Sequence record: MN850585.1
Reading direction: 5' to 3' (one strand)
Origin: Escherichia phage skuden
DNA length: 64,000 bases
The notes beneath the pieces were generated by a model. It searched no databases. It saw nothing but the letters and a program-made list of their open reading frames with translations, and had not been told where the DNA came from. Both the position numbers and the translations under genes were made by a program. Below, one piece after another: positions 2,956 to 15,142 of the stretch (position 1 is its first letter; every line of letters begins with the position of its first letter).

Positions 2956-3327
2956 TTATTTTTCAGTATTCTTTGTGTTCTTTTCAGTAATAGCTTGGAG
3001 GGCTGATACTGATTGAGCCAGATTGTTAACACTATCAGAGAATTTATCAAGAGTCTTAGTAAGTTTTGCGTTCTCTCCCTTAACATTCTCTAACTGAACT
3101 TTCTGGTTCTCCATCCCTAGCTGAATCAGTCTCATGTCAGACTGTAAATCACGAATAGCTGAATAGTTACTTTTGGAATAATTATCTAGCTGCTGTAACT
3201 TTGTTGTGACAGACACTTCTTGCTTACCACTTGAAACTTGCATGGTGGTATACATCCCAATAACACTAAAAATACCAACAACAATTGCACCAATATTGTT
3301 TTTAAAAGCTTCCTCTAGCCACTTCAT
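2956..3327 (-). CDS. membrane protein with one N-terminal TM helix and long coiled-coil
   Basis: 123 aa; IGAIVVGIFSVIGMYTT hydrophobic segment then heptad-like Q/L/N-rich region; function unknown. Confidence 0.45.
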   Translation of the reverse strand: MKWLEEAFKNNIGAIVVGIFSVIGMYTTMQVSSGKQEVSVTTKLQQLDNYSKSNYSAIRDLQSDMRLIQLGMENQKVQLENVKGENAKLTKTLDKFSDSVNNLAQSVSALQAITEKNTKNTEK

Positions 3328-3522
3328 TTATTTCTCCCCCTTAAAAGCTTTTTCTAAGTTGTCTACGAACTCATCATCGATAGGCGTGTCTGTTTTACTC
3401 GCAAGATATCTTGCAAGCCTAAAGAACACTTTCTCAATCATGTATTCACTCAGAAGGGATAAAATGAGTTTCCAGAAGAAGCTACCTAGATTTTTTAGAA
3501 GAATTGCTAGGATTGTAGGCAT
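3328..3522 (-). CDS. small membrane protein
   Basis: 64 aa; hydrophobic N-terminus MPTILAILLKNLGSFFWKLILSLL; abuts downstream ORF. Confidence 0.4.
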   Translation of the reverse strand: MPTILAILLKNLGSFFWKLILSLLSEYMIEKVFFRLARYLASKTDTPIDDEFVDNLEKAFKGEK

Positions 3523-3601: not shown

Positions 3602-5947
3602 TTAAGCAGTTCTCACCCAAGCCATTAACTTGTAGAACTGGTTAGTAACACTAAATGCTGAACCAGAACCTGTACCACCAGTGTTACCACTAACTGTATG
3701 GCTGTGAGCACCAATACCAACACTGTGAGCATGGTTACCAGCAGAAGCGGCAGTACCACTTACAGAGTGGGTGTGAGCACCGTTAGCATCGGTGTAACCC
3801 GGTCCTACACCAATACTACCACCACCACCACCAGAGTAGTGTGTAGAGTTCTGACCAATCCACGAAATGGAATGGTTGTGGTTACCAGCAGATGAAGTAG
3901 AGCCACTTACAGAGTGAGCGTGAGCACCAGTCGTGTTAGTGTTTTTTGTTCCGTAGTCAAAAGATGAAGTGGTAGCAGAAAAACTGTGAGTGTGTGAAGG
4001 CAAGTTCCCAACAGCTAACGTCACAGAGTCTGAACCACCAGTTGTAGCAACATCTGAACCATTTGCTGCTGCAATTCTGATAGTTCTACCAACACCATTG
4101 TTGAGGTACGTCCAAGTTAGACCAGGCAGTGCTGTATTAGGGTTAACATTACTGTTAAACCACGTTACAATACCTACTGGATAGATTTTATTAAGGTCTG
4201 TAGAGTCACTTACTGCCTGTGCAATCTTCTGGTCAGTTTCAGTTTTAGTGTATGCACCAATATCTGAAGGGGTTGGTTTAAATGCCGTTGAATACAACTG
4301 TGCCTCTCCAACATATTCTCCATCTGACCCATAAGCATATGTGAAGACATCAAGACCTTTAGACCCATATGTAAAAGCAATACCTCTGGCATGAGCAATG
4401 CCAGCAGAGTGTGCTACATGGATGGCTAAATCTTTCAGACCCTGCTCAATATCGTTATTTCTTACAAACCCTGAATAATCTTTATTGAATGACGCTGTGT
4501 CCTCCAACCTATTAGTTGTCCTTACCATTAAAGATTGGTTTAGCAGTTTTGTTTTTAAGAAATATCTAGCATCTAAGTTAGACCAATCAGAAGGCTGCAC
4601 TTGACCAGTGATTTTGACAGTTTTATTCAACAAGAAATCATCTTTCATATAAATCGTAGTTGCGGTTCTGTCGTTATGGATAACAAATCTTTCTGGGTTG
4701 GATGGTTCCCCATTCCCAATGTACCACCTTCTAACACCATCAGCATTATGACCAGCAAAGTATAGCTCTCTGTCTTGTGTAGTATTCTTTAGCTGTAACA
4801 ATGAGCCATTCTGATTAATAATCTGTGCAATCCTAAAAGTGTTTACATCACTTAACTTAGCAAGATTGCTCAAAGTTCCTGCTGAGATGTATCTAGAGTC
4901 AATGTTAGTCCAATCTGAAGGTTGAACTTGACCAGTGATTTTCACAGTCTTAGTAGTGGTAATCACATTTGACAAAGAGATAGTTGTACTCGTGGTGTAG
5001 TTATGTAGGTTGACTACAGAATCAGAGTCATCAGTCCCTAAGTAGAACTTGTTTGTCCCATCAGCCTTCTGCCCCAGCAAGTACAGTCCAGTTGCAGCAG
5101 TGGCATTCTTAACGACTAGCACAGCGTTATCTCTGGTGATATTGAACTCTCCTACAAAATTGTTAATACCCCTGAAGGTGTTATTGCCAACTAGCTGCGC
5201 AAATCTCTGATTAGCTGCTGTCTGAGTAAAGTATCTAGCATCTAAGTTAGAGAAGTCAGAAGGTTGAACCTGTCCAGTAATAGCGAGAGCCTTATTAACA
5301 GACACAATTGCACCTAGAGTGATTCTTGAACCTCTGCTGTTTTCGAGATGAACATCAAGACTTCCTCGAGTTAGATTCCCAACAGCCCAAGTTTTATCAT
5401 TATTGGCATTTCGACCTACAATAGCGGAGTATGCCTCACTTGCACCCGCAGGGGTCTTCAGTGTCAACTGCTCACCATTTGCTACGACACTCTGTTTAGC
5501 TTGGAATGAGTTTGTAACAGCAAGTCTTGCATATCTTGCATCATTCTCTTCATTAGTTCTCATCCCAAGTTCATTAGGACTTGGCTTATTAAGAGTATGA
5601 TAAACAGTTGCAGACCTTGAAGCATCTGCAATAGTTAGTTTAAGACCATTTGCATTGATTTTAAAAGCCTTTAAAACATCCCCCATAGTAATCTCAGAAG
5701 AACCTGTAGGGTCAAATACTGCCTTACCACCATAAAGTAACTTGACAATTCCTAAGTCACCCGTCATAGTGCTACCAGCAATCTGGACAAATCTTTCTAG
5801 TTTAAAAGACGCTAAGAAGTCTTGATAGGTCATTCGACGGTCTTCATCACCCAGCATTTCAGGTCTCTTTTTAACCCTGATATGAAGGAGGTCGTCTGAA
5901 CGAATTGTATCAATTGAGTTTAATTCACTCAACTTGTAATCTGCCAT
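3602..5947 (-). CDS. tail fibre protein (long) with His-rich C-terminal HxH repeats
   Basis: 781 aa; three internal repeats VKITGQVQPSD(W/F)(S/T)N(L/I)D(A/S)RY; C-terminus HTHSFSATTSS...GAHAHSVSG...NHNHSI...GAHSHTVSG...MAWVRTA, shared with the next fibre. Confidence 0.7.
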   Translation of the reverse strand: MADYKLSELNSIDTIRSDDLLHIRVKKRPEMLGDEDRRMTYQDFLASFKLERFVQIAGSTMTGDLGIVKLLYGGKAVFDPTGSSEITMGDVLKAFKINANGLKLTIADASRSATVYHTLNKPSPNELGMRTNEENDARYARLAVTNSFQAKQSVVANGEQLTLKTPAGASEAYSAIVGRNANNDKTWAVGNLTRGSLDVHLENSRGSRITLGAIVSVNKALAITGQVQPSDFSNLDARYFTQTAANQRFAQLVGNNTFRGINNFVGEFNITRDNAVLVVKNATAATGLYLLGQKADGTNKFYLGTDDSDSVVNLHNYTTSTTISLSNVITTTKTVKITGQVQPSDWTNIDSRYISAGTLSNLAKLSDVNTFRIAQIINQNGSLLQLKNTTQDRELYFAGHNADGVRRWYIGNGEPSNPERFVIHNDRTATTIYMKDDFLLNKTVKITGQVQPSDWSNLDARYFLKTKLLNQSLMVRTTNRLEDTASFNKDYSGFVRNNDIEQGLKDLAIHVAHSAGIAHARGIAFTYGSKGLDVFTYAYGSDGEYVGEAQLYSTAFKPTPSDIGAYTKTETDQKIAQAVSDSTDLNKIYPVGIVTWFNSNVNPNTALPGLTWTYLNNGVGRTIRIAAANGSDVATTGGSDSVTLAVGNLPSHTHSFSATTSSFDYGTKNTNTTGAHAHSVSGSTSSAGNHNHSISWIGQNSTHYSGGGGGSIGVGPGYTDANGAHTHSVSGTAASAGNHAHSVGIGAHSHTVSGNTGGTGSGSAFSVTNQFYKLMAWVRTA

Positions 5948-5993
5948 TATAAATTTTCCTCTTAAAAGGGGCTATACAGCCCCTGTAAAGAAA

Positions 5994-7142
5994 TTAAGCT
6001 GTTCTCTGCCATACATACAATACGAAGGATGGCTGTTCAACGCTAAATGCTTGACCAGAACCAGTTGTGCCAGTTGTGCCAGAGTGCGAATGCTCACCTG
6101 CTCCGGTTACTGTTACTGTTGCTGAGTGGTTGTGGGAACCAATTGCAACAGAATGGCTGTGAGCACCAATCCCAACTGTGTGATTATGCGCACCAATTGC
6201 TACAGAGTGAGTGTGGTTGTTAGCTGTTGTCAGCGTAGCTCTTGGGTCATAGCTTGCCCCCTCAACTGATAAACCTCTCCAACCACCATCAGCATAACCA
6301 CGATTAATGAATGTTGTTTGTGTTAAACCAGCAGCACTGGTTGTTCTGTTACCATAGTCATAAGTAGATACAGTCTTTGTTCCATAGTCAAACGTTGTAG
6401 TCCCTTTAGTACCGTAGTCAAAAGCACTGATAGAGGCCGTTGCACCGTGTGTGTGACCACCACCAGTGACGTATACTGAGTGAGTGTGTGCAGGAATATT
6501 GTTAACTGTCAGTGCAGTAGTCTGCGAACCAAACGTTGAACCAACTGGCCTAGAAGCACTATCATAACCTACAAGTGCTCTTCCTTTTGAAACTAACTCC
6601 CAAGTACCCCCACAAATTAAATATGTAGAAGGGTTTGCAGGATTCATAGAGAGATGGATAGTACCTACTGGATAAGAAGCCTGAACAGCCTTGTACAAGT
6701 TATTTACTGCTCTTGCTGTAGCATACTTATCTGCATCCTCATTATAAAGGTTAGATGTCACCCAGTTCTGAACATTACTTAACCCAACCTGTGCCTTAGT
6801 GGTGTTGTGTGGGTTGCTCTTATCATCAATATGTTGTTGAATAAGATTATTAACCTCTTCTGAAGACATAATCTGTAGATTTGCTCTTGCCTCAGCTACA
6901 TTAACAATGTCTGATAAGTTATTTTCAGCAACTAACTGGAGAGCATTAATAACGTTATCTAAACCAATTTGTGTCTTAGTAACACCATGAGGGTTATTTC
7001 TTAGGCTTGAGTGTGGAGCAAGTAATTGCTCAAGAGTACATCTCTTATCCTCGATACCCTGTTTAAGATGGAAGATATCACTAAGGTCAATTGGTAAGGC
7101 TGCTTGAGGCAAGGCACTAATTTGAATTTCACCTACTGCCAT
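5994..7142 (-). CDS. tail fibre protein (short) with phage tail-fibre repeats and His-rich C-terminus
   Basis: 382 aa; repeats SNPHGVTKTQIGLDNV / SNPHNTTKAQVGLSNV; C-terminus NNHTHSVAIGAHNHTVGIGAHSHSVAIGSHNHS...YVWQRTA. Confidence 0.7.
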   Translation of the reverse strand: MAVGEIQISALPQAALPIDLSDIFHLKQGIEDKRCTLEQLLAPHSSLRNNPHGVTKTQIGLDNVINALQLVAENNLSDIVNVAEARANLQIMSSEEVNNLIQQHIDDKSNPHNTTKAQVGLSNVQNWVTSNLYNEDADKYATARAVNNLYKAVQASYPVGTIHLSMNPANPSTYLICGGTWELVSKGRALVGYDSASRPVGSTFGSQTTALTVNNIPAHTHSVYVTGGGHTHGATASISAFDYGTKGTTTFDYGTKTVSTYDYGNRTTSAAGLTQTTFINRGYADGGWRGLSVEGASYDPRATLTTANNHTHSVAIGAHNHTVGIGAHSHSVAIGSHNHSATVTVTGAGEHSHSGTTGTTGSGQAFSVEQPSFVLYVWQRTA

Positions 7143-7144
7143 TA

Positions 7145-15142
<7,998 letters not shown>

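Follow-up and report, generated by a model that had tools for sequence, protein, structure and literature searches.

Two adjacent genes of Escherichia phage skuden (MN850585.1) encode proteins that both end in stacks of His-x-His (HxH) motifs. What are these ends, and have they been exchanged between the two genes? We addressed these questions in a window of 64,000 nucleotides, the whole stretch of DNA that was analysed. The phage, a myophage of E. coli resembling Felix O1, is a Felixounavirus; the region was matched by 234 phage records, nearly all of them Felixounavirus, with a top identity of 97%. The locus comprises two complete minus-strand open reading frames (ORFs), of 781 and 382 aa. 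A preliminary description made from the sequence had called both proteins tail fibres, and full-length matches to tail fiber families bear this out (Table 1). The long fibre also matches the Pfam family gp37_trimer (PF20744) in three stretches (E 2e-49; 165.9 bits against a cut-off of 21.7 bits).

The fibre genes are placed between baseplate genes and a holin/td/frd block, in the same order as in Bas63, Felix O1, wV8 and other phages. The 100-aa protein encoded upstream of the short fibre is the orthologue of Bas63 gp25, the platform of the long tail fibre on the baseplate, which is homologous to T4 gp9 (PMC12609058). Two ORFs downstream of the fibre genes encode small membrane proteins, and antisense ORFs of 62-65 aa within the fibre genes were regarded as chance occurrences. 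A hairpin lies between the stop codon of the short fibre and the ribosome-binding site of the long fibre, and a Rho-independent terminator is annotated at the equivalent place in the wV8 record. The hairpin was not called by a consensus scan because just three T follow the stem.

Table 1. Features of the fibre locus, in window positions and listed in the direction of transcription.
Feature	Position	Strand	Basis
100-aa protein upstream of short fibre	7145..7447	-	phrog_4141, E 2.5e-62; position and length of bas63_0025
Short tail fibre gene, 382 aa	5994..7142	-	Bas63 gp26 orthologue; ORF list; phrog_2097 tail fiber, E 1e-127
NPH..TK.Q.GL.NV copy 1, aa 50-64, NPHGVTKTQIGLDNV	6951..6995	-	Motif scan; conserved 0.89-0.92 among relatives
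NPH..TK.Q.GL.NV copy 2, aa 110-124, NPHNTTKAQVGLSNV	6771..6815	-	Motif scan; conservation among relatives
Short-fibre gp37-type tip, putatively receptor-binding, aa 147-382	5997..6704	-	phmmer against 2XGF, E 3e-14, aa 146-352
Hypervariable middle of short-fibre tip, aa 261-309	6216..6362	-	Identity to relatives; alignment
Hairpin AGGGGC-tgtata-GCCCCT	5967..5984	-	Read from the sequence
Long tail fibre gene, 781 aa	3602..5947	-	Bas63 gp27 orthologue; phrog_4277 tail fiber, E 0 over aa 1-781
Long-fibre shaft, aa 141-560	4268..5527	-	Four variable cassettes with conserved linkers between; Pfam gp37_trimer, three stretches
Linker repeat copy 1, aa 223-239, ITGQVQPSDFSNLDARY	5231..5281	-	Motif scan; DNA repeat family D1
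Linker repeat copy 2, aa 337-353, ITGQVQPSDWTNIDSRY	4889..4939	-	Motif scan; DNA repeat family D1
Linker repeat copy 3, aa 446-462, ITGQVQPSDWSNLDARY	4562..4612	-	Motif scan; DNA repeat family D1
Long-fibre gp37-type tip, putatively receptor-binding, aa 581-781, six HxH	3605..4207	-	phmmer against 2XGF, E 4e-17, aa 650-760
Hypervariable middle of long-fibre tip (distal needle and head), aa 681-722	3782..3907	-	Alignment with T4 gp37 head segment

Six HxH motifs were identified in the long fibre (at aa 652, 676, 690, 725, 739 and 748) and seven in the short fibre (at aa 219, 230, 310, 319, 328, 337 and 351). When each protein was shuffled 5000 times, the mean counts were 0.59 (long) and 1.0 (short) and the maxima 4 and 6, compared with the 6 and 7 observed. 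The chains end in ...LMAWVRTA (long fibre) and ...LYVWQRTA (short fibre), with W.RTA common to both. The stacks and the shared final motif noted earlier are thus present in both proteins, but the HxH consensus given for them was too narrow: the residue preceding the first His may also be N, G or E, and T is often found in the middle.

A histidine-rich, metal-binding tip of this type was first solved for T4 gp37, the single structure solved so far in which such motifs bind metal; its HxH motifs reportedly coordinate iron. We took a tip to be of this kind (2XGF-like) if it has significant similarity to gp37 residues about 785-1026, as both tips here do (Table 1), with their HxH motifs in alignment; a dedicated chaperone (T4 gp38, gp57A; lambda Tfa) is outside this structural definition. 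The suggested resemblance to known metal-binding fibre tips is therefore upheld. As in gp37, the order in both tips is collar, HxH needle, head, HxH needle, and the FDYGTK motif, the 9-residue repeat GIGAHxHxV and the 14/9 spacing are shared. T4 gp37 motifs occur at residues 966, 980, 989 and 998, and its ascending strand is spaced 14, 9, 9; the long fibre has corresponding spacings of 14 and 9 residues and the short fibre of 9, 9, 9 and 14; in the latter the units recur in the DNA at a tandem spacing of 27 nt (9 aa; repeat family D3). The motifs are distributed on either side of the head as 3 + 3 (long fibre) and 2 + 5 (short fibre), in a T4-like register. There are also differences. T4 gp37 has seven HxH and the long fibre six, the short fibre lacks the two descending head-proximal HxH of gp37 and has additional ones elsewhere, and the gp37 head is unrelated in sequence to the heads here. 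In addition, the tip is borne directly on single-protein fibres, whereas the T4 long fibre is made of four proteins.

For the long-fibre tip we propose a collar (~aa 581-660), a descending needle (661-693), a variable head (~694-722), an ascending needle (723-760) and a conserved closing strand (761-781); Pfam PF03335 (Phage_fiber repeat) was found in this tip in four stretches. The short-fibre tip has a collar, a needle with seven HxH, three (F/Y)DYG(T/N)(K/R) repeats and a variable head. Its collar matches Pfam Gp10_C (65.2 bits, E 1.6e-17; cut-off 27 bits), and that of the long fibre scores 25.4 bits in the whole protein, just under the cut-off, and 28.4 bits in the tip alone. Weaker phmmer matches link the short-fibre tip to the C-terminal domains of T4 gp10.

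These collar matches, together with a tip rich in G, S and T and homologues named 'phage baseplate protein' or 'microcystin-dependent protein', could be read to mean that the tips are T4 gp12/'phage tail collar' domains with a single structural metal site, the other HxH being low-complexity Gly/Ser/His without a metal role. We consider this very improbable. The best solved match is the gp37 tip rather than gp10 or gp12, and it spans the whole needle; the C-terminal domains of gp10 and gp12 (Gp10_C; 2FKK, 5HX2) align with the collar up to the first HxH (short fibre, E 7e-6 to 1e-5) and have neither a long multi-HxH needle nor a distal head. The 9- and 14-residue spacing copies that of T4 gp37. 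Furthermore, the His columns (H83, H85, H121, H123, H170, H179 and H181 in the numbering of the alignment query) show no variation in 110 homologues with 43-93% identity to the query, whereas neighbouring columns vary.

Sequence variation is concentrated in the middle of each gp37-type tip. Mean identity of long-fibre aa 681-722 to 11 relatives is 0.30-0.41, whereas the collar and the final 40 aa reach 0.92-0.94, and on this pattern the segment is likely the receptor-contacting part. Similarly, short-fibre aa 261-309, with 0.35-0.49 identity to relatives compared with 0.87-0.95 at the ends of the tip, is likely the receptor-contacting head. Here non-His sequence replaces the two descending HxH of T4 and Felix O1; the distal needle of the short fibre may therefore be built differently. 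A variable mid-tip followed by a conserved last 40 aa is expected if the chain folds back, and this topology was reported for Bas63 from density and AlphaFold fitting (PMC12609058). An AlphaFold2 monomer of the long-fibre tip (110-sequence alignment), which represents one chain of an intertwined trimer, reached pLDDT 70 and pTM 0.38, and a Foldseek search of the PDB with this single-chain model gave nothing below E 0.05, the weak top matches being T4 gp10 and a Pseudomonas fibre.

In both tips, conservation is highest in the ...AFSV...W.RTA segment (0.87-1.0 identity). Some phage fibres and tailspikes carry an intramolecular chaperone that is cleaved after trimerisation, and the segment could be one: a separate gp38- or Tfa-like chaperone was not detected in the window (tblastn with T4 gp38 and lambda Tfa, best E 0.44; the genome extends about 23 kb beyond the window). 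This seems exceedingly improbable, since the Pfam search detected no peptidase or chaperone-domain family, the 20-aa segment is far below the length of known intramolecular chaperone domains, and it aligns with the end of T4 gp37, which is said to belong to the mature collar. The description of Bas63 agrees with this (PMC12609058).

Taken together, the two proteins are very probably the short and long baseplate fibres of a Felixounavirus, homotrimers with HxH metal-needle tips of the T4 gp37 type that are old paralogues or separate acquisitions. Each chain would first form a collar related to the C-terminal domains of T4 gp10 and gp12, descend a thin needle, form a small variable head that contacts the receptor, most likely the LPS core, and then reascend the needle to end in the collar with the conserved ...AFSV...W.RTA strand. 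At each HxH, three chains would place six imidazoles octahedrally around one metal ion, so that the long fibre has six predicted sites and the short fibre seven; the metal may be Fe2+, as in T4, and the sites would staple a six-stranded needle into a rigid rod. In the T4 tip structure (2XGF) each HxH from three chains binds one iron ion, as summarised in PMC12609058.

The fibre observation is genuine but already known. Architecture, gp37-tip homology and di-histidine counts have been published for the near-identical Bas63 (Escherichia phage JohannRWettstein), whose 2025 cryo-EM study demonstrated the collar, needle and head architecture and described gp37-like tips with 7 and 6 di-histidine motifs on its two fibres (PMC12609058). 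These counts equal those found here. Bas63 belongs to the same genus and has the same gene order and similar fibre lengths (382 aa in both; 784 compared with 781 aa). Its 382-aa protein, named STF and sited on baseplate wedge 2 (PMC12609058), is gp26, 98.2% identical to the short fibre over its full length. Bas63 gp27 is 71.5% identical to the long fibre overall and 93% in the tip; the overall value is low because Bas63 differs in type at three of the four shaft cassettes (aa 141-220, 261-340 and 461-560; 20-39% identity). The head-proximal motif is HHxH in the Bas63 long fibre (PMC12609058) and NHNH here. The density of the Bas63 fibres did not resolve side chains (PMC12609058).

Whether the shared C-terminus reflects an exchange of modules, as had been proposed, was assessed at the protein and nucleotide levels. 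BLASTP of long-fibre aa 589-781 against short-fibre aa 157-382 gave 34% identity (E 1e-16), and the C-terminal modules are therefore homologous on proper alignment; the preliminary description had named a lack of such homology as what would refute it. Homology and common end motifs would be expected after recent exchange or gene conversion between this phage's two fibre genes, and such exchange occurs in relatives. Recent exchange is nevertheless most unlikely here. The tips are 38% identical to each other and each is 35-39% identical to the T4 gp37 tip, so that neither resembles the other more than it resembles T4. The nucleotide comparison refutes a recent event: the DNA common to both tips consists only of patches of 37 nt and 27 nt (85-86% identical) over HxH codons. 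The head segments are unrelated in sequence and unequal in length. The sequences thus point to old common ancestry of a widely distributed module and not to a recent swap, such that the two tips would be old paralogues or separate acquisitions of it. Hundreds of enterobacterial prophage proteins carry the whole tip at 43-60% identity, and lambda-type Stf matches in the needle segment (query aa 95-179) at 47-49%. The N-terminal shafts and attachment domains of lambda Stf and of prophage and tailocin fibres are unlike those here, and lambda Stf is followed by a Tfa chaperone gene, which the fibre genes here lack.

The proposal of module exchange does apply to relatives, for a sub-module comprising the distal needle and head. 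Felix O1, UAB_Phi87 and a large number of further Salmonella Felixounaviruses have this patch in both the short and the long fibre, at 81-91% nucleotide identity and between flanks of 33-58%; it is found twice per genome. The fibre genes of UAB_Phi87 have 200 nt in common at 91%, and those of Felix O1 270 nt at 81%, with a core at 87-97%. Concerted evolution in the Felix O1 clade was considered and rejected, as 17 copies of the patch group mainly by gene; continuous homogenisation fits this grouping less well than a single older exchange with local conversion in UAB_Phi87. Salmonella phage SP3_SHan-2021 seemed to show a swap of the whole tip, its 'long fibre' ending in a 708-nt copy of the phage's own short-fibre tip (100% identical), but this case was also rejected. 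We attribute it to misassembly because the true C-terminal 95 aa of the long fibre are encoded at the start of the record, and at its finish the short-fibre tip, the intergenic region and the beginning of the long fibre are present as a duplicated block. As a separate observation, Felix O1-type phages have the same head on both fibres and the coliphage has two different heads.

Fibre diversity otherwise comes from cassette swapping between phages. The long-fibre shaft has variable cassettes at aa 141-220, 261-340, 361-440 and 461-560, and its segment-wise identities to phage bumzen are 28, 90, 99, 100, 96, 100 and 17%. The three linker copies form conserved blocks between these cassettes. Three copies of a 19-mer had been described. 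Three copies of 17-19 aa are present, but the exact 19-mer occurs only in copy 3, the others matching at 16 of 19 positions. In the DNA the linkers are three 68-nt copies, 75-82% identical and spaced 327 and 342 nt. They are probably conserved linkers joining beta-helix shaft domains. For the long fibre of Bas63, five domains of beta-helix repeats resembling the T4 gp34 rod (PDB 5NXH) were described (PMC12609058), with helix-turn linkers. Compared with the T4 gp34/gp37 shafts, the shaft here has three Pfam-detectable units (PF20744; the one at aa 160-248, E 2e-16) and cassette sequences that diverge strongly between phages. A PDB sequence search gave no direct long-fibre match to 5NXH.

The reported NPH..TK.Q.GL.NV repeats of the short fibre were recovered as two copies, at aa 50 and aa 110. 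Pfam and PDB searches with the N-terminal 156 aa returned noise; the one exception was a repeated but weak similarity (E 0.0016) to NLSD..AR.NLG repeats in 9ZD7, a phage short fibre. The NPH motifs are probably short helix-turn shaft elements.

In practical terms, the value of these results is in annotation of the likely receptor-contacting heads, short-fibre aa 261-309 and long-fibre aa 681-722. Boundaries of chimeric fibres are best set in the conserved collar, the C-terminal strand or the linker repeats. It is possible, if on balance doubtful, that the HxH/GIGAHxH codon repeats of the needles and the ITGQVQPSD..RY linkers of the long-fibre shaft act as recombination joints, at which heads and shaft cassettes move between phages and between the two fibre genes of one genome. 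If so, conversion would have given both fibres of Felix O1-type Salmonella phages a single head, and thus a single receptor specificity, and the coliphage with its two unrelated heads would have dual specificity. Head conversion between short and long fibres would then be a natural way of switching host range, which engineers could imitate. The contrast between one head and two may merit proper recombination analysis by host-range engineers.

The region that the preliminary description had assigned to two tail fibres resolves, in an ORF scan, into two neighbouring complete ORFs on the minus strand, which lie downstream of baseplate genes (table). On their 3' side are two small membrane-protein ORFs (the phrog_4038 protein is named holin in some records), then convergent genes for thymidylate synthase and dihydrofolate reductase. 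This gene order at the fibre locus is common to the window, Bas63 (Escherichia phage JohannRWettstein), Felix O1, wV8, UAB_Phi87 and others. In megablast, 234 phage records match the fibre region (top matches 97% identical across 85% of the query), nearly all from Felixounavirus or other Ounavirinae with Escherichia or Salmonella hosts. A hairpin separates the stop codon of the short fibre from the ribosome-binding site of the long fibre, at the place where the wV8 record has an annotated terminator; it might lower expression of the long fibre relative to the short one. Fibre naming is inconsistent across databases: GenBank gives the 382-aa Bas63 short fibre (L001, a stretch of the Bas63 record, 3902-5050) the name "long tail fiber protein", and that of Felix O1 (stretch L016, 795-1961) is labelled "putative tail fiber protein GP37".

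Features of the fibre locus in the window
Feature	Position	Strand	Remarks
ORFs directly 3' of long fibre	2956-3522	-	64 aa (phrog_402) and 123 aa (phrog_4038); neither family has an assigned function
Long fibre gene	3602..5947	-	complete ORF, 781 aa, adjoins short fibre ORF
Long-fibre shaft cassettes	4268-5527	-	aa 141-220, 261-340, 361-440, 461-560
Hairpin	5967-5984	-	6-bp GC-rich stem, just three T after
Short fibre gene	5994..7142	-	complete ORF, 382 aa
Entry for NNLSDIVNVAEARANLQI	6928-6987	-	listed for aa 53-92 region; NNLSDIVNVAEARANLQI at aa 74-91
100-aa protein	7145..7447		upstream of both fibre genes
DUF2612-like wedge protein	7447..8304		upstream of both fibre genes
Baseplate_J gene	8307..9776		upstream of both fibre genes

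Profile searches place the long fibre, over its full length, in tail-fibre family phrog_4277 (E 0) and the short fibre in tail-fibre family phrog_2097 (E 1e-127). Pfam domains include three gp37_trimer units within the long-fibre shaft, a Gp10_C domain that opens the C-terminal module in each fibre, and four copies of the 14-residue "Phage tail fibre repeat" (PF03335) in the long-fibre tip. His-x-His (HxH) motifs occur six times in the long fibre (aa 652, 676, 690, 725, 739 and 748) and seven times in the short fibre (aa 219, 230, 310, 319, 328, 337 and 351). Shuffled proteins carried on average 0.6 and 1.0, respectively, and never reached the observed counts in 5000 trials. The chains end in ...LMAWVRTA (long) and ...LYVWQRTA (short). 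The linker ITGQVQPSD(W/F)(S/T)N(L/I)D(A/S)RY is present three times in the long fibre (aa 223, 337 and 446), encoded by three 68-nt repeats of 75-82% identity, and NPH..TK.Q.GL.NV twice in the short fibre (aa 50 and 110). Thus every element read by eye (HxH stacks, end motifs, three linker copies, NPH repeats) is present, and the pattern is confirmed to be far beyond chance. A third helix-turn-like element of the short fibre, NNLSDIVNVAEARANLQI, shares a core, ..(K/R)(A/T).(V/L)(G/Q)(L/I), with both NPH motifs and has a weak resemblance (E 0.0016) to the NLSD..AR.NLG repeats of 9ZD7, a solved phage short tail fibre.

Among solved structures, both fibres have a strong match only to the T4 gp37 receptor-binding tip (2XGF; E 4e-17 and 3e-14), and the HxH, FDYGTK and GIGAHxHxV elements line up. 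The T4 tip has seven HxH motifs, spaced by 14, 9 and 9 residues on the ascending strand; the corresponding spacings are 14 and 9 in the long fibre and 9, 9, 9 and 14 in the short fibre. The motif histidines are among the few invariant columns in 110 homologues (43-93% identical to the long-fibre tip), and the proposed analogy to metal-binding HxH stacks appears correct by homology. The window short fibre, like those of Bas63, bumzen and mistaenkt, has non-His sequence in place of the two HxH motifs nearest the head on the descending strand, and its distal needle may thus differ in build. T4 gp38 and lambda Tfa have no detectable homologue within the 64-kb window, despite its two gp37-type tips.

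Most probably, each fibre is a homotrimer whose N-terminus anchors it to the baseplate. In the tip, a collar (long fibre ~aa 581-660, short fibre ~aa 147-220) would be followed by a descending needle strand, a small head (~aa 694-722 and ~aa 262-309), an ascending needle strand, and a last conserved strand that returns to the collar. One HxH from each of three chains would supply six imidazoles per metal ion (Fe2+ in T4), which predicts six ions in the long fibre and seven in the short one, and a needle that is a rigid rod. Conservation supports this layout: in each fibre, the collar and the last 40 residues have an identity of 0.91-0.94 to 11 relatives, against 0.30-0.50 for the middle of the tip. 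The LPS core is the probable receptor, as Bas63 requires an intact one (PMC8594841). For this exact protein, we infer metal binding, receptor and fold-back topology; an AlphaFold2 monomer model (single chain), of mediocre quality and with no significant PDB match, speaks neither for nor against them.

Over their C-terminal 190-230 residues, the fibres align at 34% identity (E 1e-16), and by this alignment the modules are therefore homologous; the lack of homology that the preliminary description had named as contrary evidence was not found. It had also suggested module exchange between the two fibres. For the window this is not supported: the tips are 38% identical to each other and each 35-39% identical to T4 gp37, and their DNA shares only patches of 37 nt and 27 nt, over HxH codons. 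The gp37-type tip is widespread (T4-like phages, lambda Stf, hundreds of enterobacterial prophage fibres), and common ancestry or separate acquisition would explain the resemblance.

The idea stands for a sub-module in relatives, and exchange in the Salmonella clade is, on sequence grounds, a real case. In UAB_Phi87, nt 748-947 of the short-fibre gene match nt 1990-2189 of the long-fibre gene at 91% identity (stretch L003, 1818-2017 and 4277-4476). The two Felix O1 fibre genes have 270 nt in common at 81% identity, with a core of 87-97% and flanks of 33-58% (L016 1542-1811 and 4001-4270). This shared DNA encodes the distal needle plus head, SFDYGTK...GG(H/R)YGGDSIGGK.RV...GT.QVSS.AGDHSHT. By megablast, many Salmonella Felixounavirus records carry the 200-nt patch twice, and RPN213, BPS17W1 and NJ12 carry it once, in the short-fibre gene of the two checked (RPN213 and BPS17W1). 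Since 17 copies of the patch cluster mainly by gene, one older exchange is suggested, with further local conversion in UAB_Phi87, as its pair is unusually close (18 differences). Felix O1-type Salmonella phages probably carry the same receptor-binding head on both fibres. An apparent whole-tip swap in Salmonella phage SP3_SHan-2021 was rejected, as it looks like an end-of-record assembly artefact and not a chimeric fibre. At the record end (L009, MW296865.1 83063-88041), the long-fibre gene is fused to a 708-nt, 100% identical copy of the short-fibre tip of the same phage, after which come the intergenic region and the beginning of the long fibre; the true final 95 aa of the long fibre stand at the record start (L015, MW296865.1 1-5000).

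Along the long fibre, identity to bumzen is 99% (aa 1-140), 28% (141-220), 90% (linker), 99% (261-340), 96% (361-440), 17% (461-560) and 98% (tip), and other relatives have different segment-wise patterns. As read from these alignments, this shows fibre diversity to be cassette mosaicism between phages. Shaft cassettes move independently between phages, and the conserved linker repeats mark leaps in identity between ~17-40% and 96-99%. The ITGQVQPSD..RY linkers fall exactly at cassette boundaries and may act as crossover sites.

Cryo-EM work on Bas63 (PMC12609058, Sci Adv 2025) covers the same two-fibre arrangement and describes a 430 A short fibre (gp26) on wedge 2 and a 630 A long fibre (gp27) on the 100-aa platform protein, tips whose chain turns back at the head, seven (short) and six (long) di-histidine motifs, and tips and beta-helix domains as the variable parts genus-wide. 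The window short fibre is 98.2% identical to gp26 and the long fibre 71.5% identical to gp27 (93% in the tip), and thus the feature is already described for a near-identical phage. As a whole, it is an ordinary and already published trait of Felixounavirus fibres; the only mildly new points are that Felix O1-type phages share a head between their two fibre types and that cassette boundaries lie at linker repeats.
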